A stretch of 64,000 bases of DNA from Candidatus Palauibacter scopulicola (GCF_947581915.1 NZ_CANPWG010000054.1:15672-79671); one strand, 5' to 3'; counted from the stretch's first letter, positions 47,477-62,368 are shown. A program made the numbers and translations. Notes: generated by a model not told the origin, from the sequence alone.

Positions 47477-48297
47477 TCTGCCTTCCTCCAGGAATCGTTC
47501 TCGTGTACGGCGGCGGCGAGGGCGGCGGACAGCTCCGCGAAGGCGGTCTCGCCGCGGCCCAAAGCTGCGATGAGCGCGGATCCGACGACGACCCCGTCGG
47601 CCATGCCCGCGACCGCGGCGGCCTGCTCCGGCGTCGAGATCCCGAACCCCACCGCCACCGGCAGCCGCACCATCTTCCGGAGCCCTCTCACCTGGTCCTC
47701 AAGCGAGGCGTCGAGCGCCTTCCGCGCGCCCGTGACGCCGAGGCGGGAAATGTAGTACAGGAACCCCGAGGCGTGGCCGAGGATCGTCTCGAGGCGGGCC
47801 CGCGGCGTGGTGGGGGCCGCGAGCGGGATGAGGTCGAGCGACCCGGCGGCCAGCCGCCGCTCCAGCGCCGGGTGCGAACCCACGGGGAGGTCGGTGACGA
47901 GGAGTCCCGCAGCCCCCGCGGCCTCCGCCCGCGCCAGGAAGCGCTCCACTCCCATGCGAAGAATCGGATTCAGGTAGGAGAAGACGACGACCGGCGGCAG
48001 ATCGGCCGAGATCCCGGCCAGCTGGTCGAGCGTGGACTCGACCGTGACGCCCTGCTCCAGCGCCCGCCAGCTCGCGGCCTGGATCGTGGGCCCGTCCGCG
48101 AGCGGGTCGCTGAACGGGATCCCGAGTTCGATGATGTCCGCGCCGTCCGCCGCCAGCCGCTCCAGCAGTCGCGGCGTGTCCCCCGGTCCCGGAAACCCGC
48201 TGGACAGAAAGGGGATGAACGCCGCCCCCGCTTCCCGCCCCTCGAACGCGCCCCCGATGCGCGATCCGGCGCGGGCGACGGGGGCCGTGGCGGGCAT
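47473..48297 (-). CDS. trpA: tryptophan synthase alpha chain
   Basis: It has IELGIPFSDPLADGPTIQ, YYISRLGVTG and GFGIS. Start at MPATAPV (ATG 48297). Confidence 0.9.
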   Translation of the reverse strand: MPATAPVARAGSRIGGAFEGREAGAAFIPFLSSGFPGPGDTPRLLERLAADGADIIELGIPFSDPLADGPTIQAASWRALEQGVTVESTLDQLAGISADLPPVVVFSYLNPILRMGVERFLARAEAAGAAGLLVTDLPVGSHPALERRLAAGSLDLIPLAAPTTPRARLETILGHASGFLYYISRLGVTGARKALDASLEDQVRGLRKMVRLPVAVGFGISTPEQAAAVAGMADGVVVGSALIAALGRGETAFAELSAALAAAVHENDSWRKAE

Positions 48298-48314
48298 GGC
48301 GCCGCGGGGAACGC

Positions 48315-50402
48315 TCAAGAGCCGTTGTCCTCCGCGTCCTCTGCACCCTCCGCGTCCTCCGCGTCCTCCTCCGTCGTCACGGCCGGCCGGTGCGTCCCCC
48401 ACTGCTCGAACCACTTCCTCAGGTAGAGCTGCGTGCGCAGGAAGTTCGACGGGCGCGAACTCGTCCCGTGCCACTCCCCCTGGAAGCGCACCATGACCGT
48501 CGGCACGCCCTCGTAGTGCAGCGCCTGGTAGAACTCCTCCGTCTGACCCATCGGCGTCCGCAGATCCATCTCCCCCGTCATCAGCATCGTCGGCGTCGTC
48601 ACGTTCCCGACGTAGAAGATCGAAGACCGGTCCATCCACTCCTCCGGGTCCTCCCAGAAAGGCTGCTCGAAGGTGCGCAGATAGGCGATGGCGTCCGACG
48701 TCCCCATCGCCGACATCCAGTTCACGATGGGACAGTTCGCCGAGGCGGCCCGGAAGCGGTCCGTGTTCCCGACGATGTACGAGGTGAGGATGCCGCCGCC
48801 CGAGCACCCGTACACGAACAGGTTGTCCTCGTCCACGTAGCCGCGCCGCAGCATCTCGTCGACCCCGCCCATGAGGTCGGGAAAGTCCGCGCCCGGATAG
48901 TCGTGGTTGATCGCGTTCGCGAACTCCGTCCCGTATCCCGTGCTTCCCCGCGGGTTCGTATAGAGGACGACGTAGTCGTTCGAGGCGTGTTCCTGGAAGG
49001 CGAAGTTGAACCCGCCGTTGTACATCGCGTGCGGCCCGCCGTGGATCGCGAGCATCAGCGGATACTCGCGGTTCGGGTCGAAGTCGGGCGGCTTCACGAT
49101 CCAGCCCTGGATCCGGAAGCCGTCCGTCGACTCGTACCAGACCTCCTCCACCTCGCCGAGAGTCACGCCGTGGAGCACGTCCGCGTTGACCTCCGTGAGG
49201 CGGGTGGTCCGGCCCGGGTCCGACAGGGAGAAGCGGTAGAGGTCGCCGGGCTCGTGGTCCGTGGAGATCGTGCCGACCGCCGTGCCGTCGTCCGAGAAGG
49301 AGGTGAGGGAGAAGAGATGCGCCCCCTCCGTAAGCTGCGTGACGCCGCCGTCGACGGAGACGAAGTGGAGCTGCCGGTACCCTTCCCGGTTCACGTTGAA
49401 GTAGAGGCCGCTCCCGTCGGGCGCCCACTGGAAGCCGCCGGACTGCCGGTCATAGTCCCCGGAGATGAGCCGCGAGCCGGATCCGTCCCGGTTCATGACG
49501 TGGATTCTGCCGTTCCGGTAGGTGTCGCGGTGCTCGTCCCCGGCGCTGTACGCGATGAGGCGGCCGTCGGGCGAGGGAACGGGGCCCGCGTCGGAGCCGC
49601 GCCGGTCGGTGAGCTGGCGAATCTCGCCGGAGGCCACGGAGACCGCGTAGATCTCCGACTCCTGCCAGTGCTCGGGCCGGTCCCAGTCGGGGACGCGGTA
49701 CGAGGAGAAGTAGATCTCGGTCCCGTCGGGGCTCCAGGCGATCCCGCCGTGGTTCCAGTCCCCCGTCGTGAGCTGGCGGGCGGAGCCCCCGTCGGCGGGG
49801 ACGACGAACACGTGCGTCCAGCCGGTGTCGACGTACCCCTGGCGGTCGCGCTTGTAGCCGGCGCGCTCCACGATCTTCGGGCCCGTGGTCCACGTCGCCC
49901 CATCCGGCCGCGACGGAAGATCGACGCCGGCGAAGTCCGCGCGGTCGTTCACCCGGCTCGTGAAGGCGATCCACTCTCCGTCGGGCGACCAGAGGGGCGA
50001 GGAGGGGCCGTTCTCGAGGCGCGTGACCTGTGTCGTGGCGCCCTCCTCATCCATCCAGCGCACGAAGATCTGGCTCCCGGAGGGCTCGCCCGCCGCCGTG
50101 TACAGGATGCGCGTGCCGTCGGGCGACCAGCGCGCCCCGCCGCCCTCGAGGAGCGCCCGCTTCCGGCTGCCGTCCGCGTTCATCATGTAGAGGGACGACT
50201 CGCGGCGGTCGTTGACCTTGTCCACCCACCCGCGGGTGTAAACGATCCTCGACCCGTCCGGCGAGATCCGGGGGTTGGAGACCGACTCCATGTCCATGTA
50301 GTGGTCGAGGGACAGCCGGCGGGTCTGGGCCGCCGCGTCCGCGGCGAGCGCTCCGGCGGCGATGGCTGTCAGCAGGACGGCGCTTCCGAACTTCGTCTTC
50401 AT
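48315..50402 (-). CDS. S9 family serine peptidase with an N-terminal TolB-like propeller
   Basis: The propeller repeats are of the SPDGSRIVY type. The catalytic elbow is GCSGGG, with a C-terminal GEWHG. Confidence 0.9.
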   Translation of the reverse strand: MKTKFGSAVLLTAIAAGALAADAAAQTRRLSLDHYMDMESVSNPRISPDGSRIVYTRGWVDKVNDRRESSLYMMNADGSRKRALLEGGGARWSPDGTRILYTAAGEPSGSQIFVRWMDEEGATTQVTRLENGPSSPLWSPDGEWIAFTSRVNDRADFAGVDLPSRPDGATWTTGPKIVERAGYKRDRQGYVDTGWTHVFVVPADGGSARQLTTGDWNHGGIAWSPDGTEIYFSSYRVPDWDRPEHWQESEIYAVSVASGEIRQLTDRRGSDAGPVPSPDGRLIAYSAGDEHRDTYRNGRIHVMNRDGSGSRLISGDYDRQSGGFQWAPDGSGLYFNVNREGYRQLHFVSVDGGVTQLTEGAHLFSLTSFSDDGTAVGTISTDHEPGDLYRFSLSDPGRTTRLTEVNADVLHGVTLGEVEEVWYESTDGFRIQGWIVKPPDFDPNREYPLMLAIHGGPHAMYNGGFNFAFQEHASNDYVVLYTNPRGSTGYGTEFANAINHDYPGADFPDLMGGVDEMLRRGYVDEDNLFVYGCSGGGILTSYIVGNTDRFRAASANCPIVNWMSAMGTSDAIAYLRTFEQPFWEDPEEWMDRSSIFYVGNVTTPTMLMTGEMDLRTPMGQTEEFYQALHYEGVPTVMVRFQGEWHGTSSRPSNFLRTQLYLRKWFEQWGTHRPAVTTEEDAEDAEGAEDAEDNGS

Positions 50403-50501
50403 CCTTCGCTCCTTCGGCTTCTTGGGCGGCCCGTGGTCAGACCTGGAATTATCGGAGATGAGCCGAGCGGCGGCCAGCCGGAAGCCGACGGTAGAGGTCG
50501 G

Positions 50502-50774
50502 TCAGAGCGGACGGTAGACGGTTCCGCGGTGTGCGACGCGTACGACGAGAACGACGAGCGTCGCGTCCTGCACCTCGTACACCACGCGGTAGCCGCCGAC
50601 CCGGATGCGCCGAAGCCCGCGCAGGCCTCCCTTCAGGGAACTGCCCGCGTGGGGATGCTCCGCCAGTCCGTCGATGGCGTCCACGATGCGCACGCGGTCG
50701 TGCTTCGGAATCCGGCCAAGCGCCTTGACCGCGCTCCGCTTAATCCGAACGGAGTAGGCCACCCCTGACCTCAT
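50502..50774 (-). CDS. RelE/ParE family toxin
   Basis: YSVRIKRSAVKALGRIP...LRRIRVGGYRVVYEVQDATLVVLVVRVAHR is the RelE/ParE pattern. The start is ATG 50774 or GTG 50762. Confidence 0.8.
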   Translation of the reverse strand: MRSGVAYSVRIKRSAVKALGRIPKHDRVRIVDAIDGLAEHPHAGSSLKGGLRGLRRIRVGGYRVVYEVQDATLVVLVVRVAHRGTVYRPL

Positions 50775-50961
50775 CCCAGTCGAGTACCGGGTCGCTGGGG
50801 TCACGCAACCGCTCCACGGCAGCCGTCAGGTCATCGAAGTCTTCCAGATATCGCTCCAGGGCCTGGCGAACCACGTCGGCCCGGCTGCGCCTCAGCGTTG
50901 ACGCCGCGGCATCCAGCGCTTCGACCATCTCGTGCGGGACGCGCGCGGTGATCTGATCCAT
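50740..50961 (-). CDS. ribbon-helix-helix (CopG-like) antitoxin
   Basis: MDQITARVPHEMVEALDAAASTLRRSRADVVRQALERYLE is an RHH fold pattern. It overlaps the toxin start. Confidence 0.7.
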   Translation of the reverse strand: MDQITARVPHEMVEALDAAASTLRRSRADVVRQALERYLEDFDDLTAAVERLRDPSDPVLDWDEVRGGLLRSD

Positions 50962-51000
50962 GGTGCTGGTCTCTCCGATGTCTCTCACGTACATCGATGC

Positions 51001-51041
51001 AATGTCAATGAATGTCACTGCAGTCATAGTAATGTCACTGC
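51001..51041. promoter_or_regulatory. phased direct repeats upstream of the RHH antitoxin, candidate operator
   Basis: AATGTCA occurs at 51001, 51011 and 51031. The extended AATGTCACTGC occurs at 51011-51021 and 51031-51041. Spacings are 10 and 20 bp. Confidence 0.4.
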
Positions 51042-51065
51042 CGCATCCCCGGCAAGGAGACGACG

Positions 51066-51962
51066 CTAGAGGATTGCGGCGCCGAGGGCGGAGGCGACGA
51101 GGCCGACTCCGAGTTCGGCGGTCTGGTTGCGGTGGTCGAGGATGGGGTTGAGCTCGACGAGTTCGAGGCTCAGCAGCTTTCCCGAGTGCGCGGCCTTCTC
51201 GCACACCAGGTGCCCTTCGCGGTAGGTAAGGCCGCCGCGCACCGGCGTCCCCACGCCGGGGGCGATCCGCGGGTCGAGCGCGTCGACGTCGAACGAGAGG
51301 TGGAACCCGGACGTGCCGGCGCCGGCGCGCTCCACGGCCTCGTCCATGCAGGCCCCCACGCCGCGCTCGTCGATCTCCGACATCGTGAACACGCGGACGC
51401 CGAGCTCCCGGACGAGCCGCTTTTCGCCGGCGTCCAGCGACCGCGCGCCCAGGACGCTCACGTTTTCGGGCGCGACGCTCGCCGCGCCGCGGGTCAGTTG
51501 CGGCTCCCCGTGCCCCAGCAGCACCGCGAGCGACATCCCGTGGATGTTGCCGGTGGGCGTGGTGCCGGGGCGGTTCATGTCGGCGTGGGCGTCCACCCAG
51601 ATGACGCCGATGGACGCCCCCCGGGACCGGTGGTGGTCGGCGACCGCCGCCACCGATCCGATCGAGAGCGAATGGTCTCCGCCGAGCACGAGCGGCGTGC
51701 AGCCCCGGGCCAACCCTTCGCGCGCGAGCCTCCGCGTCTCCTCCGCGACGTGGACGATCTCGTCCAGAAAGCGCAACTCGTGCTCGCCTGCGTCGGTGGT
51801 CTCCAGCCCGCCGGCCGTCACGGTGCCCAGTTCGACGATGCGGTGGCCGATGGCTTCGATCTCCCGGCTGATCCCGGCGATGCGCAGAGCGGAAGGACCC
51901 ATGTCCACGCCCCGGCGTCCGGCGCCGAGGTCGATGGAGACGGAGATCAGCGCGATGTCCAC
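51066..51962 (-). CDS. rocF: arginase
   Basis: The ureohydrolase Mn-binding motifs are present: LGGDHS, VWVDAHADMN and SFDVDALDP. Confidence 0.9.
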   Translation of the reverse strand: MDIALISVSIDLGAGRRGVDMGPSALRIAGISREIEAIGHRIVELGTVTAGGLETTDAGEHELRFLDEIVHVAEETRRLAREGLARGCTPLVLGGDHSLSIGSVAAVADHHRSRGASIGVIWVDAHADMNRPGTTPTGNIHGMSLAVLLGHGEPQLTRGAASVAPENVSVLGARSLDAGEKRLVRELGVRVFTMSEIDERGVGACMDEAVERAGAGTSGFHLSFDVDALDPRIAPGVGTPVRGGLTYREGHLVCEKAAHSGKLLSLELVELNPILDHRNQTAELGVGLVASALGAAIL

Positions 51963-51972
51963 CGGGCCGCGA

Positions 51973-53259
51973 TCAGCGCGTGTAGCAGGGGGTGGCGTTG
52001 GCGGCGGCCCACGGATGAACGATCCGGAGGGCGAGCCCGCCGGCGCCGTCGTCCTGCCACTGGACCTGCAACCCCTTGAGCGCTCGCTGGGCCCCGGCCT
52101 CCGCGTCGCCGAGGGGGGAGACCTCGTACGGACCCGCGATGGTCCCGGTCCGGGCCGAGAACAGGAAGTCGCGGAGCGCGCCGCGGTTGGGTCCGCCCGG
52201 CCCGGAGAGCGTCTGGTCGAGTCCTTCGGCCATGAGTTCCACGGCCGCGAAACCGCCCGCCGCGTGGTAGCCCGGTGTCGTGCCGTGCGCCGCCTGGTAG
52301 CGGCTGACGAAGGTGGCGTTGTCCGCGATGAACCCGGACGTCTCGAGGGCCGGGTGCCAGGGCGAGTTGCCGGCGACGCACCGCGCGGCCTGCCCTACGT
52401 CCTCGACGAAGTGCTGCTGACCCGGCCCGATGATCAGGCTCATGAGGACCGGCCTGTAGCCCACGACGGGCGCCGCGGTGGCGAAGCCGGCGGCGTCGGC
52501 CGTGTAGCCGCCGCCGATGAAGAGGTCCGCGCCGGCGTCCCGGGCCGCGGTGGCGATCGCCTCGTGGTCGGCGGCTCCCACCTCATAGGACTGGTCCAGC
52601 ACGATCTCCAGTCCGTGGCGGCGGACCGCTTCGCGCACGCCCTCGACCACCGATGCCGGAAACGAACTGTTTTCGTACACGATCGCCGCGGTCCGGGCCC
52701 CGCCGAACACGGCCACCTCGACGGAACCCTGCAGGTAGGCCGGTCCCGGCGTCAGCAACTGGACGCTCCATTGCCGCTGCCGCTCGGACCAGATCGAGGG
52801 CGCCGCCGCCATCGGCGCGACCATCGGCATGCCCGCGGCCTCGTTCACGGCCAGGACGGTTTCCGTGATCGGGCTGCTGTAGGGTCCCAGCAGGGCATGG
52901 ACCGTGCCGGAGGCGATGAGTTCCGCGTACAGGCGCGCGCTCGCCTGCGCGTCGCTCCCGTCATCGCGAATCTCCAGCTGCACCGGCCGGCCGCGGATGC
53001 CGCCCTTCTCGTTGAGGATCTCAACGGCGAGACGATACCCGCGCACGACTTCGATCCCCTCCACGCCGTGCCGCCCGGTCTCGGAGATGGCCGCCGCCAA
53101 CGTGATCGGCGTCCCATCCGAGCCCGGCTCCGGCCCCGTGGGGTCCGCCGGGTCGTCCACGCACCCGGCCGCGGCCAGGGCCAGTGTCAGGAAGCCTGCG
53201 GCCAGGCCGATCGTGCGACCGCCGCGATGTGCCCGATGTGTATCGCTCATGAGTCCCAT
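51973..53259 (-). CDS. ABC transporter substrate-binding lipoprotein (LivJ/PBP1-like), orphan
   Basis: The lipobox is LAAAGC, and it has the type-1 periplasmic binding layout (VQLEIRDDGSD...LLGPYSS). No permease or ATPase gene is adjacent. An alternative start is at 53250. Confidence 0.75.
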   Translation of the reverse strand: MGLMSDTHRAHRGGRTIGLAAGFLTLALAAAGCVDDPADPTGPEPGSDGTPITLAAAISETGRHGVEGIEVVRGYRLAVEILNEKGGIRGRPVQLEIRDDGSDAQASARLYAELIASGTVHALLGPYSSPITETVLAVNEAAGMPMVAPMAAAPSIWSERQRQWSVQLLTPGPAYLQGSVEVAVFGGARTAAIVYENSSFPASVVEGVREAVRRHGLEIVLDQSYEVGAADHEAIATAARDAGADLFIGGGYTADAAGFATAAPVVGYRPVLMSLIIGPGQQHFVEDVGQAARCVAGNSPWHPALETSGFIADNATFVSRYQAAHGTTPGYHAAGGFAAVELMAEGLDQTLSGPGGPNRGALRDFLFSARTGTIAGPYEVSPLGDAEAGAQRALKGLQVQWQDDGAGGLALRIVHPWAAANATPCYTR

Positions 53260-53291
53260 GAATATCGCCTCGAAACTTGAAGACAGTTCTG

Positions 53292-53981
53292 CTAGCGCAG
53301 CTCCACGTCGTCGCCGTCCAGGGTACGGATCCTCGCCACGAGCGCGGGCTCCGGCCCCTCGTCCACTTCGAGCGCCAGGTTCAGCGACTCGAGGGTGGAT
53401 CGTACCGCGGCGGGGTCCGGATGTTCGGCCCGGAACGAGATCAGCCGCCCGCCCGGCGGCGTCGCGCGGGCCGGGTGCGGCGTCGTTCCCCAGTCGATGA
53501 AGAAAGGTACGAGACCGTCGTGCAGGACGGCGGCGAAGGCCGTGATCTCCCAGCTCAGTTCGCTGCCGTCCGGCCGCAGCCGGGAGCCGGGCCGCACCGG
53601 GCCCAGCGGCACGCCCCGGCCCGAGGCCCGCGCGACGAGCGCCGCGAGGTCGGTCCCGCGGGCCGCCCACGTGACGAGCCTCGGCTCGGCGAGTCCCTCG
53701 ATCCCGAACGGGAGCGGCTCGTCCCGGGGCGGCGCTTCGGGGTCCGGACCGAGGATCTCGAGATAGATGTCGCCCCCGAGCGAGAGGAGGTGGTTCGCGG
53801 TGCCGAGGTTCCCGTGGCGGCCGCCGAACGGGGCTTCGACGCCGAGCCGCTCGGCCACCCACGCCACCCCTTCCTCGAGGTCGGCGGTGCCCAGCAGCAG
53901 ATGGTCGAGATTCGCGGGAACGGCGGGGGCGCCCGGCATACCGGGTGCGCCCCGAGGCGGTGTCGGCGGGAGCATGGCCAC
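53292..53981 (-). CDS. VOC/glyoxalase-like domain protein
   Basis: LDHLLLGTADLEEG...YLEILGPDP is the glyoxalase-like domain pattern. Size is 229 aa. Confidence 0.7.
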   Translation of the reverse strand: MAMLPPTPPRGAPGMPGAPAVPANLDHLLLGTADLEEGVAWVAERLGVEAPFGGRHGNLGTANHLLSLGGDIYLEILGPDPEAPPRDEPLPFGIEGLAEPRLVTWAARGTDLAALVARASGRGVPLGPVRPGSRLRPDGSELSWEITAFAAVLHDGLVPFFIDWGTTPHPARATPPGGRLISFRAEHPDPAAVRSTLESLNLALEVDEGPEPALVARIRTLDGDDVELR

Positions 53982-53986
53982 TTCCG

Positions 53987-54532
53987 TCAGCCTCCCTCGT
54001 CTTCGAGTTCGACGCCGAGCCCGTCGGCGATCCGGTTCACGAACGCATAGTAGGCGGTGACCGCGCAGATATCGTGGATCGCGCGGTCATCGAAGCCGTG
54101 CGCCTTCAATCCGTCGACCGCGGATCCGTGCTCGCCGCCCGGGTCGAGCGTCAACCGCGCGGCGTAGTCGAGCATCGCCCGGTCGGCCTCGTCCAGTTCG
54201 GCCGCCGCTTGGTCCGTTGCGAGGGCGGCGATGAGGCGTTCGTTCTCCTCGCTGGAACCGCCGGCGTTGGCCGCGTCGAGCAGACGACGGAGACCCTCTC
54301 CGTGATGGACAATTCAGTAGCGGCAGGCGTTGAGGCCCGACACGACGACCGCGATCATCTCCCGCTGGATCCGGGTCAGCGGCCCCGGTCCGTACATCAG
54401 TTCGCGGTAGAGGTCGTAGTGGAGCCGGATGACGCGGCTATGGACGCCGTGAATGCGGATGATGTTGTCATCGTCCGCGACGCGGTCCTCCTCGGGAATC
54501 CCCGCCGGATCCGGGTAGTCGATGAAGGCCAC
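53987..54532 (-). CDS. AhpD/carboxymuconolactone-decarboxylase family 'peroxidase-related' protein with an in-frame TGA (candidate selenocysteine; otherwise a pseudogene)
   Basis: A single frame joins ORFs 54314..54733 and 53987..54175: ...REMIAVVVSGLNACRY-TGA-IVHHGEGLRRLL...AYYAFVNRIADGLGVEL. The TGA at 54316..54314 replaces the second Cys of the family NxCxYCxxHH motif. The GTG start at 54532 lies 2 nt after the trpB stop. Confidence 0.6.
54287..54303 (-). promoter_or_regulatory. SECIS-like hairpin downstream of the in-frame UGA
   Basis: On the minus strand the sequence reads UGA-AUUGUCCAUC-ACGGAG-AGGGU-CUCCGU. This is a perfect 6-7 bp stem with a G-rich apical loop starting 16 nt after the UGA. 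Confidence 0.4.
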
Positions 54533-54534
54533 GG

Positions 54535-55797
54535 TCAGCGCCCGCCAGCGCCGGGTTCGAGGCCGGGTTCGCCACCCGCCGCCAGGATGCGGGCGACTTC
54601 CTCCACGTCCTTGTCGCCCCGGCCGCTGAGACAGATGACGACGCGGCTCCCCGCCCAGCGCGCGGCTTCCCGCCGCAGGCCCGCCAGCGCGTGGGCGCTC
54701 TCGAGCGCGGGGATCAGCCCCTCGAGCCGGCACAGGTCCGCGAAGGCCGCGAGGGCCTCCTCATCCGTCACCGATTCGTAGCGGACCTGTCCCGTCTCCT
54801 TGAGCCACGAGTGCTCCGGGCCGACGCCGGGGTAGTCGAGGCCGGCGGAGACGGAATGGGCGGGGATCACCTGCCCGTCTTCGTCCTGGAGCAGGTAGCT
54901 GTAGTTGCCGTGAAGCACCCCGGGCTCGCCCGCCGTGAGCGAGGCAGAGTGCCGGCCGGTCTCGACGCCGTGCCCCGCCGCCTCCACGCCGACGAGGGCG
55001 ACCCGCGCCTCCGCCGCGACCTCGCGGTTGCGCTCGATGAAGGGGGCGAAGATGCCGATCGCGTTGGAGCCGCCGCCCACGCAGGCGAACACGGCATCCG
55101 GCTCCACGGCATGGTCGGCGAGTTGCCGGACCGTCTCGTCGCCGATGACGCGCTGGAAGTCGCGTACGAGTTCGGGATAGGGCGCCGGGCCGACGACGGA
55201 GCCGATGATGTAGTGCGTCGTGTCCACGTTCGTGACCCAGTCGCGGATCGCCTCGTTCGTCGCGTCCTTCAGCGTCCGGCTCCCGCTGGAGACGGGGATG
55301 ACCTCGGCGGCCAGCATCTCCATGCGCTCGACGTTGAGCGCCTGCCGGCGCATGTCCTCCTCGCCCATGTAGACGGCGCACTCGAAGTCGAGCGCCGCGC
55401 AGGCGGTGGCCGTCGCCACGCCGTGCTGGCCCGCCCCGGTCTCGGCGATGATCCGGGCCTTGTTCATGCGCTTCGCGAGCAGCGACTGGCCGAGCGTGTT
55501 GTTGATCTTGTGGGCGCCCGTGTGGTTGAGGTCCTCGCGCTTCAGCCACAGGTCGAGCCCGAGATCCGCCCCGAGTCGCGGCGCCCGGTAGAGCGGCGTG
55601 GGCCGGCCCACGTAATGGGCGAGGCTGGCCTCGAGCGCCTCCAGGAAGGAGGGATCGTCGCGCGCCTCCGCCCAGGCCGCGGTGAGCTCGTCGAGCGCCG
55701 GGATCAGCGTCTCGGGCACGAACTGCCCGCCGAAATCGCCGAACCAGCCGGGGGCCGGGCTGCTCAGTTGGCGGCCGCTCATTTCGCGGCTGCTCAT
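54535..55797 (-). CDS. trpB: tryptophan synthase beta chain
   Basis: It has [20 protein letters not shown] (the PLP Lys), GAGQHG and GGGSNAIG. The ATG overlaps the trpF stop (ATGA). Confidence 0.9.
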
Positions 55798-56423
55798 TTT
55801 GCGGCCGCCAGGAATTCGAGGATGAGGTCGACCGACTTCTCCCCGGGGGCCCGCTCGACGCCCGACGAGACATCGACGATATCGGGACGCACGTCGCGGA
55901 TGGCGCGCGCCACGTTGTCCGCGTTCAGCCCACCCGCGAGCGCGAGCCGACACCCGTCCCGCTCCAGCCCCGCCAGCCACTCGTACGGGAAGGCCGTCCC
56001 GGTGCCTCCGGGTCCGCGCGGCGAGAACCCCTCCAGGAGGATCGCGTCCGCCGCCTCCCGGTACTCGTCCCACCCCCGGACCAGAGCGTCGCTCGACGTG
56101 GGCCGGAGACCCTTCCAGACATCCAGTCCCTCGTCCCGCAGGCGGTCGCAGACTTCGGGCGGCTCCGAGCCGGCGAGCTGGGCGATGTGGAACTCCGCGA
56201 TGTCCCGTTTGACGAGGATCTCCGCCGGGCCCGCGTCCACGAACACGCCCACGGCGCGCGTGCCGCCCTCGAGCGCCGCCACGACCCCGGCGGCTTCCCC
56301 GGCCGTGATTTCCCTCACCCGGCCCGCGAACACGACGCCCACGTAGTCCGCGCCGGCGCGGGACGTCACCGTGGCGTGTCCCGGCTCCCGGAGACCGCAG
56401 ATCTTCACTCTGACCCGGCTCAC
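55794..56423 (-). CDS. trpF: phosphoribosylanthranilate isomerase
   Basis: It has VKICGL and ADYVGVVF, with GGLNADNV and VDVSSGVE near the C-terminus. The GTG start overlaps the trpC stop. Confidence 0.85.
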
Positions 56424-57271
56424 GGCGCGCCGTCGCTGTCGCCCGCCGCGTCGGCGCCCGCCGGCTGCATCCGGCCGCTCCGGGGCCGCTGCGGGTGGCC
56501 GACGAGCGCCTCGACGCCCGCCGCCGGGTCGCCCGCCATCAGCCAGCCGCCGACCAGCACCGCGTCCGCCCCCGCGGAGCCCGCCGCCGCCGCGTCCTCC
56601 GCGGACCGGATCCCGCTCTCCGCCACGGCCGCGACGTCGGCCGGAAGCTCCTCGATCAGGCGCAGCGAGCGCTCGAGATCCACCTCGAAGGTCGCGAGGT
56701 CCCGCGCGTTGACGCCGAGGATCCGGGCCCCGGCTTCGAGCGCCCGCGCCACCTCCTCCTCGTCGTGCGCCTCCACGAGCGCCCCGAGGCCGAGTTCGCC
56801 CGCGATTTCGAGCAGTTCACGCAACCGGGCGTCGCCGAGCGCGCGCACGATGAGCAGCACCGCATCCGCACCCGCGGCTCGCGCCTCGTACAACTGGACG
56901 GGATCCAGCGTGAAGTCCTTGCGGAGGACGGGCACTCCCACAGCGTCCTTCGCGGACCTCAGGTCGTCCAGCGAGCCGCCGAAGTAGCGCTCGTCCGTGA
57001 GGACCGAAATCGCGGCCGCCCCCGCGGAGGCGTACACGCTCGCCACGCCCGCGGCCTGGGCGTACGGGTTGATGTCGCCCGCGGAGGGAGAGCGCCGCTT
57101 GAACTCGGCGACGACGGAGACTTCCCCAGGCCGCCGCAGAGACGCCTCGAAGCCGCGGGGGGGCGGGGCTTCATCGGCCTGCCCGCGAATCGCGCTCCGG
57201 AACAACTGGAGCCGCGCGACCTCTTCCCGCTTCGCCGCGAGGATCTCTTCGAGAATCGTGTCGTGTGCCAT
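56420..57271 (-). CDS. trpC: indole-3-glycerol phosphate synthase
   Basis: It has [41 protein letters not shown] and VGVNARDL. Start at MAHDTIL (ATG 57271). Confidence 0.9.
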
Positions 57272-57345
57272 GGGCGCCAAGCTGCGACCGCCGCTATCCC
57301 GCCGCAAAACCCCGGCGGCCGCGCCGGTTCGGGTGGAAGGTTGCG

Positions 57346-57384
57346 CTTCGGTGCATGTTCGGGTAGATTTCGGTAACCGTTCGG
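57346..57384. promoter_or_regulatory. four NTTCGG motifs at exact 11-bp spacing in the trpC-lexA divergent spacer
   Basis: CTTCGG is at 57346, GTTCGG at 57357, TTTCGG at 57368 and GTTCGG at 57379. This reads as GTTC-N7-TTTC-N7-GTTC. A fifth, off-phase GTTCGG lies at 57327. Confidence 0.35.
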
Positions 57385-57441
57385 CCCGGCGCAAGAGACG
57401 GCGGGCCGCGCAGTGCGGAAGCGCGAGCGGAGCGAATAACG

Positions 57442-58050
57442 ATGGCGCTTACGAAGCGACAGCGCGAGATGCTGGATTTCCTCGAGGGCTTCATACGGTT
57501 CCGCGGGTATTCCCCGAGCTTCGAGGAGATCGCGGAGGAGTTCGGCTACCGCTCGCTCGCGACGGTGCACGAACATCTCCAGAACCTGCAGGCGAAGGGG
57601 TATATCCGAAAAAACTACAATGAAAGTCGGTCCGTCGAACTGGTGGAAGGAAAGCTCCAGGTCGCCGCGGTCGAGCTGCCGCTGTACGGCAACGTGGCGG
57701 CCGGCCAGCCGATAGAGGTCATCCAGGAGCAGGAGACGGTCTCCGTTCCCGAAGACATGATCGCGGGCTCACTGAGCGAGCACTATGTGCTCCGAGTGCG
57801 CGGCGATTCGATGATCGACGAACAGATCCGAGACGGCGACTACGTCATCGTCCAGTCGCGCGAGACCGCGCACAACGGCGAAATGGTGATCGCGCTCGTC
57901 GATGGCGAGAACGCCACCATGAAGAAGATCTACCTGGAGCAGGGCCGGATCCGGCTCCAGCCCGCAAACCCGGCGCTCACGCCGATCTACCTGCACCCCT
58001 CGCAGGTCACGATCCAGGGCGTCGTGATCGGAGTGATCCGGCGCTACTGA
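57442..58050 (+). CDS. lexA: LexA repressor
   Basis: It has the N-terminal wHTH (LTKRQREMLDFL...SFEEIAEEFGYRS), the cleavage-site region VAAGQP, and the S24 peptidase motifs GDSM and MKK. Confidence 0.9.
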   Translation: MALTKRQREMLDFLEGFIRFRGYSPSFEEIAEEFGYRSLATVHEHLQNLQAKGYIRKNYNESRSVELVEGKLQVAAVELPLYGNVAAGQPIEVIQEQETVSVPEDMIAGSLSEHYVLRVRGDSMIDEQIRDGDYVIVQSRETAHNGEMVIALVDGENATMKKIYLEQGRIRLQPANPALTPIYLHPSQVTIQGVVIGVIRRY

Positions 58051-61298: not shown

Positions 61299-62312
61299 TT
61301 ATGCCGTCGGTTGAAACGATTGCAGGGATTGGAGTTGTGACTCCGCGGAGCCCGAATCGATGGATTGTTCGGCAGCGGCGACGCCGGCGGCGAGGGTGTC
61401 CACGGCGCCCGCGGCCCAGAAGGCGGCGGCGGCGTTGAGGACGACGGCCGCGCGGCCGGCCCCGGCTTCGCGGCCGTCGATCACGCGACGGACCCGTTCT
61501 GCGTTCTCCTCCGGCTCGCCTCCCGCCAGGTCGGACGGTGCGTACTCCGGCCAGCCGAAGTCGGACGGCGCGACCTCGAACTCGGACAGCGTCCCGTTCT
61601 CGATGCGGAAGACGCGGGTCGGGCCGAGGGGGCTCAGTTCGTCCATGCCGGGTTCGCCGTGGACGACGAGCGCGCGCTCGTGGCCGAGTTCGAGGAGGGA
61701 GTCGGCGACGAGGCGCTGCAGATCGGGGTGGGCGACGCCGACGACCTGCCGCCGCACGCCGGCCGGGTTCGCGAGCGGGCCGAGGAGGTTCATGATCGTG
61801 GTTACGCCGAGCGCGGCGCGGACGGGCCCCACGTGCCGCATAGCCGGGTGGTGGGCCGGGGCGAACATGAACACGAACCCGGTTTCCTCGAACATCCGCT
61901 TCTCGTCCTCGGGAGGAAGCTCGATGGGCACGCCGAGGATCTCCAGCACGTCGGCGCTGCCGCACTTCGAGGTGAACGAGCGGTTGCCGTGCTTTGCGAT
62001 GCGGACGCCGCCCGCCGCAGCCACGATGGCGGCCGCGGTCGAGATGTTGAACGTGGTCAGCGTGCCGCCGCCGGTGCCGCAGGTGTCGATGATGCGGTCG
62101 TCGTCGAGGGCGAGCGGGATCATGGCCTTCCGCAGCGCGCGGACGCCGCCGGCCACCTCGGCGGGCGTTTCCCCGCGCATCCTGAGCGCGGCGAGGAGCG
62201 CGGCCATCTCGGCCTGGGTGGCCTCGCCGCTCATGAAGCGGTCGAACGTGGCTTCGGCGGCGGCGGCATCCAGGGTCTCTCCGGAGAGGACGCGCCGGAT
62301 CGTGTTCGTCAC
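61299..62312 (-). CDS. trpD: anthranilate phosphoribosyltransferase
   Basis: It has DTCGTGGG, KHGNRS.TSKCGSADVLE and NLLGPLANPA. The GTG start lies 7 nt after GGAGGA. Confidence 0.9.
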   Translation of the reverse strand: MTNTIRRVLSGETLDAAAAEATFDRFMSGEATQAEMAALLAALRMRGETPAEVAGGVRALRKAMIPLALDDDRIIDTCGTGGGTLTTFNISTAAAIVAAAGGVRIAKHGNRSFTSKCGSADVLEILGVPIELPPEDEKRMFEETGFVFMFAPAHHPAMRHVGPVRAALGVTTIMNLLGPLANPAGVRRQVVGVAHPDLQRLVADSLLELGHERALVVHGEPGMDELSPLGPTRVFRIENGTLSEFEVAPSDFGWPEYAPSDLAGGEPEENAERVRRVIDGREAGAGRAAVVLNAAAAFWAAGAVDTLAAGVAAAEQSIDSGSAESQLQSLQSFQPTA

Positions 62313-62326
62313 CTCGATTCCTCCTC

Positions 62327-62368
62327 GTTTCCCCTCATCGGTTTCCCCTCATCGGTTTCCCCTCGTCG
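62327..62368. repeat. 14-bp tandem repeat x3 (GTTTCCCCTCATCG) in the trpD-truA divergent spacer
   Basis: Units lie at 62327-62340, 62341-62354 and 62355-62368. The last unit has one mismatch. Confidence 0.85.

Follow-up and report, generated by a model that had tools for sequence, protein, structure and literature searches.

The gene on the minus strand at 53987..54532 of the window (the whole 64-kb stretch of DNA analysed here) very probably encodes an AhpD-like selenoprotein of the CxxU type, decoded through a SECIS element; a probability of about 0.92 is assigned to this reading. The kind of protein is already known and has been catalogued since 2005, and the gene of the window is an ordinary, poorly annotated example of it. 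In the selenoproteome of the Sargasso Sea (2005), the AhpD-like protein was described from 27 sequences, assigned to COG2128, with a CxxU motif and SECIS-like stem-loops (PMC1088965). In the GOS selenoproteome (2008), "AhpD-like 1" comprised 299 sequences and was the fourth most abundant family (PMC2398784). A 2026 review lists an "AhpD-like protein, TIGR01926, CxxU" (PMC13188914), and BSepDB has it among its browsable families (PMC13326102). The precedent in marine surveys, which the sequence-only reading had mentioned, is real. The AhpD-like and AhpD-like 1 selenoproteins share with the gene of the window the HMM family, the CxxU motif, Sec in place of the second Cys, a stem-loop directly past the UGA whose apical loop is small and contains G, and widespread Cys homologues; nothing essential differs. 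From a biological point of view, it adds a further member to a selenoprotein family that is among the most abundant in the sea.

According to this reading, UGA-73 would be recoded co-translationally, the hairpin at 54303..54287 with its G-rich apical loop acting as a bacterial SECIS element. The hairpin would recruit the SelB·GTP·Sec-tRNA(Sec) complex to the ribosome, where Sec would be inserted without termination by RF2. The predicted product is a 181-residue AhpD-like thiol/selenol oxidoreductase in which the second Cys of CxxC is replaced by Sec, and the Cys-Sec pair would be expected to cycle between the selenol/thiol and the selenenylsulfide. By analogy with DR1765 and with AhpD of Mycobacterium tuberculosis, this pair might act as the reductant of a peroxide, or else of a partner peroxidase or a disulfide. 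In the AhpD-like DR1765, full protection against H2O2 depends on the CxxC motif (PMC8945050). The participation of SelB and tRNA-Sec in this particular genome, as well as the incorporation of selenium, is what we infer from the gene and its relatives.

Translation of the locus gives a frame of 181 sense codons with a single internal stop, from a GTG start codon (54532..54530, minus) to the true stop TGA (53989..53987, minus). The internal TGA is found at 54316..54314 (minus) in the context S-G-L-N-A-C-R-Y-[TGA]-I-V-H-H-G-E-G-L-R-R. It is the predicted Sec codon, residue 73, and occupies the second redox position of the C70-R-Y-U73 motif; the first residue of CxxU, Cys70, is encoded by the TGC at 54325..54323 (minus) and belongs to a near-invariant column. 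The sequence-only reading had described this read-through gene, its TGA and the hairpin at 54303..54287, and all its statements on coordinates and sequence are correct. Homologues can be aligned from residue 1, and the MAFIDY at the N-terminus of the product agrees with the MAFI.Y of these proteins. With Cys put at the TGA, the product matches the NCBIfam profile TIGR01926 (peroxid_rel) with 104.6 bits (cutoff 81.8) over residues 22-178, equivalent to profile positions 30-177 of 178, and the Pfam CMD profile PF02627 with 46.6 bits (cutoff 23). These profile matches place the gene in the TIGR01926/CMD-fold family, as had been proposed under the name of AhpD/CMD "peroxidase-related" enzyme, with a C70-x-x-U73 motif. 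The conserved His77, four residues after U73, is invariant in the alignment.

The column of the TGA corresponds to the second Cys of the redox motif, as the sequence-only reading had supposed. This is seen in the alignment with the Cys-form homologues, in which the motif is C-x-Y-C, and in the printed alignments with the PDB relatives 2pfx, 3c1l and 2oyo, where the column is the second Cys of CxxC. Likewise, PDB 6k40 and 2prr match across the motif-containing region. All these PDB relatives match the product at E values from 1e-16 to 1e-22 and have the motif region N-x-C-x-Y-C-x-x-x-H-G in common with it. The entry 6k40 is entitled alkyl hydroperoxide reductase AhpD, and we take it to be DR1765 of Deinococcus radiodurans. 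The difference from the Cys-type TIGR01926 structures (2pfx, 3c1l or Mlr4105, 2oyo, 2prr and 6k40) is that these have Cys where the gene of the window has UGA/Sec, and a SECIS element would serve no purpose in Cys-type genes.

A scan of GTDB representative genomes gave 570 confirmed relatives, and the best 80 of these 570 loci were compared together with the window and with one further relative (L007), 82 sequences in all. The TGA is present at the Cys column, as C-x-Y-TGA, in 82 of 82 sequences; each has that one in-frame stop only, followed by 101-127 open codons. The 81 loci other than the window span about ten phyla. TGA-carrying loci are found in Gemmatimonadota, Acidobacteriota/Thermoanaerobaculia, Calditrichota, Ignavibacteria, Zixibacteria and Neomarinimicrobiota/Fidelibacterota, and also in Planctomycetota, Chloroflexota, Desulfosarcina, Lentisphaeria and Synergistaceae. 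Among the best 80 of the 570, the closest relatives are Gemmatimonadota with 91% and 88% identity (the protein of OY762926.1 is the 88% identical one), followed by Candidatus Palauibacter with 76-79%; complete Ca. Palauibacter chromosomes among the closest relatives are NZ_OZ250143.1 and NZ_OZ244149.1. The relatives of the gene are mostly marine. Two clusters of proteins known as C-terminal fragments were traced to their DNA, represented by eight contigs from Tara-type marine assemblies and other metagenomes, and this DNA shows the in-frame TGA at the same column together with the same hairpin.

The part of the gene past the TGA has a dN/dS of 0.21-0.42 against eight Gemmatimonadota relatives, and the part ahead of it has a dN/dS of 0.04-0.18 (two more distant relatives are too saturated to be scored). 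These comparisons show a coding sequence past the TGA that is intact and under purifying selection. The earlier argument against decay, which rested on conserved motifs and coding-like composition after the TGA, is in this way strengthened by the orthologues, where further stops and frameshifts are absent.

The core of the SECIS-like hairpin, ACGGAG / AGGGU / CUCCGU (54303..54287, minus), begins 10 nt past the TGA, and its G-rich apical loop begins 16 nt past the UGA. The 5' arm opens in the codon of His77, and the whole element lies within the codons of H-G-E-G-L-R. Taken singly, this hairpin is not significant: the single-sequence fold of 54260..54325 (66 nt) has a z of 0.70, with 153 of 200 dinucleotide shuffles at least as good, and the window, with its 70% GC, has 2.55 perfect 6-bp hairpins per kb on each strand. 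Its significance therefore rests entirely on the comparative data. A scan of 53900..54700 against Rfam gave chance-level matches only and no family, and RNAalifold proposed no consensus structure for the 82-sequence alignment of 55 columns. In place of RNAalifold, the pairs were counted explicitly, with shifted and shuffled controls.

By this count, 93.5% of the cells of the 82-sequence alignment are paired over the six base pairs of the core stem. The pairing falls to 27-56% if the 3' arm is displaced by 1-3 columns, and none of 500 shuffles reached the observed values. Four of the six pairs have compensatory changes on both sides. For instance, in three loci (L066, L070 and L087) a Gly-to-Glu replacement (G17 to A) is compensated by a silent change of the Leu codon from CTC to CTT (C27 to U), which turns a G-C pair into an A-U pair. 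In another three (L054, L078 and L081), reading the alignment by eye suggests that a different stem has been rebuilt around the same GGU loop. In the loop, G22 and G23 are near-invariant or invariant, and position 24, a U in the window, varies.

The hairpin overlaps the conserved peptide HHG[EA]GLRR, and part of the nucleotide conservation is due to the protein. The choice among synonymous codons is also skewed within the element. Arg is written as CGT in 84% of cases in the hairpin and in 10% over the rest of the same genes, Gly as GGA/GGG in 99% and 44%, Leu as CTC in 85% and 31%, and His as CAC in 93% and 72%. The Fisher p values of this skew range from 1e-5 to 1e-46 (from 1e-22 to 1e-46 for Arg, Gly and Leu) and are inflated by shared ancestry. 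The synonymous divergence from the marine relatives is near saturation, with a pS of 0.83 between the window and L016. Pairing, compensatory changes, codon skew and the loop Gs together show, at the level of aligned sequences, that the hairpin is under selection as RNA. With respect to the hairpin proposed by the sequence-only reading, its conservation, its compensatory pairs and its codon skew speak for it, but it does not stand out as a single sequence; the orthologues, for which a check of both TGA and hairpin had been suggested, carry the one in 82 of 82 cases and the other with the 93.5% pairing given above.

The distribution of the hairpin among genes without the TGA is less clear-cut. 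Two of the three Cys-form genes examined are without a hairpin in register. The notion that Cys forms always lack it had to be given up, as the locus L093 (2719-3261), a Cys form with TGC and 58% identity, keeps a similar stem in the same register, CGGAG-UCUGG-CUCCG, with a different loop; the stem alone is thus not diagnostic of Sec. This locus may represent a recent conversion of Sec to Cys. Its neighbours encode a DsbD_TM protein, a Redoxin/AhpC-TSA domain protein and pyridine-nucleotide disulfide oxidoreductases. Two other loci have a sense codon at the Sec column, CGA (Arg) in L096 (501-1073) and TTA (Leu) in L097 (238-786), each one substitution away from TGA. The ACGGRG/CUCCGU stem is still there in both, but the Gs of the loop are gone. 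Either locus may have lost Sec recently, may be an inactivated copy, or may reflect an assembly error.

The best studied bacterial element with which the hairpin can be compared is the SECIS of E. coli fdhF. In both cases the hairpin lies directly 3' of the UGA within the coding sequence, and the G-rich apical loop is situated about 16-17 nt past the UGA, with GGU(C) in the window. The core stem of the window is much shorter (6-7 bp), a bulged U is not evident in it, and the element is a predicted SECIS only. The likeness of the loop to the fdhF GGUC, which had been pointed out before, holds for the window itself but is only partly conserved, column 24 of the loop being variable across the AhpD-like family.

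Several better known relatives were considered as possible identities of the product. AhpD of M. tuberculosis, the lipoamide-driven reductant of AhpC, has in common with it the CMD/AhpD core and a CxxC-type motif followed by His; it is a distant relative only, since the gene of the window belongs to TIGR01926 and not to the AhpD family itself. In the M. tuberculosis enzyme the nucleophile is the second Cys (Cys133), assisted by His137 four residues on, a pair that corresponds to U73 and H77. A canonical AhpD was rejected: only the generic AhpD core domain TIGR00778 is matched (44.6 bits, cutoff 27.8), and the ten ORFs that were scanned, which cover 48.3-59.4 kb and trpD (61.3-62.3 kb), include none with an AhpC/Prx domain. 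NF041238 (AhpD_rel_CFYUT), a different AhpD-related selenoprotein family, was also rejected: the product scores 44.7 bits where 175 are required and matches only the C-terminal part of its 357-position model. An identity with PcaC, the gamma-carboxymuconolactone decarboxylase, is unsupported: only the superfamily domain PF02627 is shared, the best NCBIfam model is TIGR01926, and no pca genes were seen among the ORFs scanned around the gene.

The gene is embedded in a set of tryptophan biosynthesis genes. Immediately upstream lies trpB (PALP domain; 54535..55800, minus), whose TGA stop (54537..54535) is 2 nt ahead of the start of the AhpD-like gene. On the other side, a Glyoxalase_3 (PF13468) gene (53292..53981, minus; 143.8 bits) has its GTG start 5 nt past the stop of the AhpD-like gene, with a GGAGG within the last codons of the latter. 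The order on the minus strand is trpD (61302..62348), trpC, trpF, trpB, the selenoprotein gene, Glyoxalase_3, Peripla_BP_6, an arginase-family gene, an S9 peptidase gene and trpA (47503..48267). The trp genes at 47503..57394 (minus) are interrupted, in that trpB and trpA, usually adjacent, are separated by about 6.3 kb. What lies ahead of trpA in the marine relative L001 is an insert of the selenoprotein gene, Glyoxalase_3 and Bax1-I. At the other end of the set, lexA (LexA_DNA_bind and Peptidase_S24; 57367..58050, plus) is divergent and overlaps the listed trpC ORF at the 5' end of the latter, and this lexA-trpC arrangement recurs in L007.

The order trpC-trpF-trpB, AhpD-like gene and Glyoxalase_3 was also found in the marine and other metagenome contigs of the two fragment clusters mentioned above. 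The trpB / selenoprotein / Glyoxalase_3 arrangement is conserved in Gemmatimonadota relatives only, and a literature search found no description of it; among the papers that full-text searches brought up, none reports the family from Gemmatimonadota or from within a trp operon. From this position inside the tryptophan operon it is conceivable, and on our estimate unlikely, that the selenoprotein and the Glyoxalase_3 protein serve the chemistry of tryptophan or indole in a specific role that depends on selenium, with the supply of selenium modulating the distal operon. Such a modulation could occur because the UGA lies upstream of Glyoxalase_3 and the later genes. If this were true, the pair might, for example, protect or repair an oxidation-sensitive intermediate or enzyme, a function other than general peroxide defence.

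As for the Sec machinery, tblastn with the E. coli proteins found no SelA, SelB or SelD in the 64-kb window, and ARAGORN found neither tRNA-Sec nor any other tRNA in it. In the fetched loci, tblastn with E. coli SelA, SelB and SelD gave only generic GTPase matches (L030 and L064). A GC3-based screen of the window for other TGA-interrupted genes gave no convincing second selenoprotein; at 70% GC this screen is too noisy and missed the target gene itself. The literature search found nothing direct on selenoproteins of Gemmatimonadota or Palauibacter, the sole lead being two bins of sponge-microbiome Gemmatimonadetes (bin43 and bin94) that have one SelA (COG1921) and one SelB (COG3276) each (PMC5649159, Table S4). 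The selenoprotein reading would make the Gemmatimonadota lineage of the window a probable user of Sec, and this affects how other in-frame TGAs in the genome are to be read.

An alternative that dispenses with selenium is that the TGA is read through by a near-cognate Trp or Cys tRNA, or that the two halves are expressed separately, the hairpin being a pause or coupling signal that works without SelB. This is very unlikely in our judgement. The failure to find the Sec machinery within the 64-kb window agrees with it, and so does the retention of the stem without a TGA in L096 (CGA) and L097 (TTA). In some relatives, moreover, a GTG or ATG lies two codons past the TGA, at which gene callers start a C-terminal fragment. 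However, the window has GTC two positions past the TGA, which is no start codon, so the C-terminal half cannot initiate there; the next start, Met120, would remove conserved residues. The position concerned is the redox Cys of CxxC, a classic site of Sec/Cys exchange, and the small apical loop, the conserved Gs and the distance from the UGA are those of the published descriptions of bacterial SECIS elements in the AhpD-like family. The SelA and SelB of the related sponge Gemmatimonadetes bins also count against it. Read-through independent of Sec would leave unexplained why selection acts on a hairpin whose G-rich loop is conserved and lies at the distance typical of a SECIS.

A pseudogene or a sequencing or assembly error would be another account of the locus: an ordinary Cys-type gene in which TGC or TGT has become TGA, with the downstream part decaying or untranslated. 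Such a change needs one substitution only, Cys-form homologues with 51-58% identity do exist (P0004, P0009 and P0014), and in public gene calls the locus comes out as broken. Against this account stand the presence of the TGA at this column in 82 of 82 sequences from many phyla and in several independent marine metagenome assemblies, the freedom from additional stops or frameshifts, the purifying selection past the TGA (dN/dS 0.21-0.42) and the selection on synonymous sites of the hairpin. Conservation of the TGA, selection on the hairpin and purifying selection past the TGA effectively refute it, and the chance left to it is negligible. The candidate selenoprotein of the sequence-only reading is supported by the conserved TGA, the hairpin, the purifying selection and the literature.

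The family is badly handled in public gene calls. In the protein search, the close relatives fall into three kinds: Cys forms of full length with C-R-Y-C and 51-58% identity, full-length proteins that have W or G at the Sec column, and fragments. Among the 120 nearest clusters, about 24 contain only a C-terminal part, 100-116 residues long (150 in one case); these fragments open with M/V-(V)-H-H-G-[EA]-G-L-R-R and so begin two or three codons past the TGA column. In many MAGs, the gene or its orthologues are wrongly called as a 72-residue stub plus a "peroxidase" fragment of about 105 residues, or with a spurious Trp or Gly in the active site, or are not called at all. Once the UGA is read as Sec, the redox enzyme is complete again, and the main value of the present analysis is this correction of the annotation.

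A genome-wide reassignment of UGA to Trp or Gly (genetic code 4 or 25), to which the W in 47 and the G in 3 of the 120 nearest protein clusters at the Sec column might point, was rejected and has practically no chance of being right, given that TGA is the ordinary and dominant stop in the window, where it terminates 22 of 31 long high-GC3 ORFs, trpB and the AhpD-like gene itself among them, that the W of cluster P0001 corresponds in the DNA to a TGA, untranslatable under code 11, and is hence a gene-caller artefact, and that none of the UGA-reassigned lineages known to us fits a Gemmatimonadota genome of 70% GC. Two further clusters (P0012 and P0100) have S at the Sec column, and some relatives bear the name "peroxidase" or "carboxymuconolactone decarboxylase family protein".
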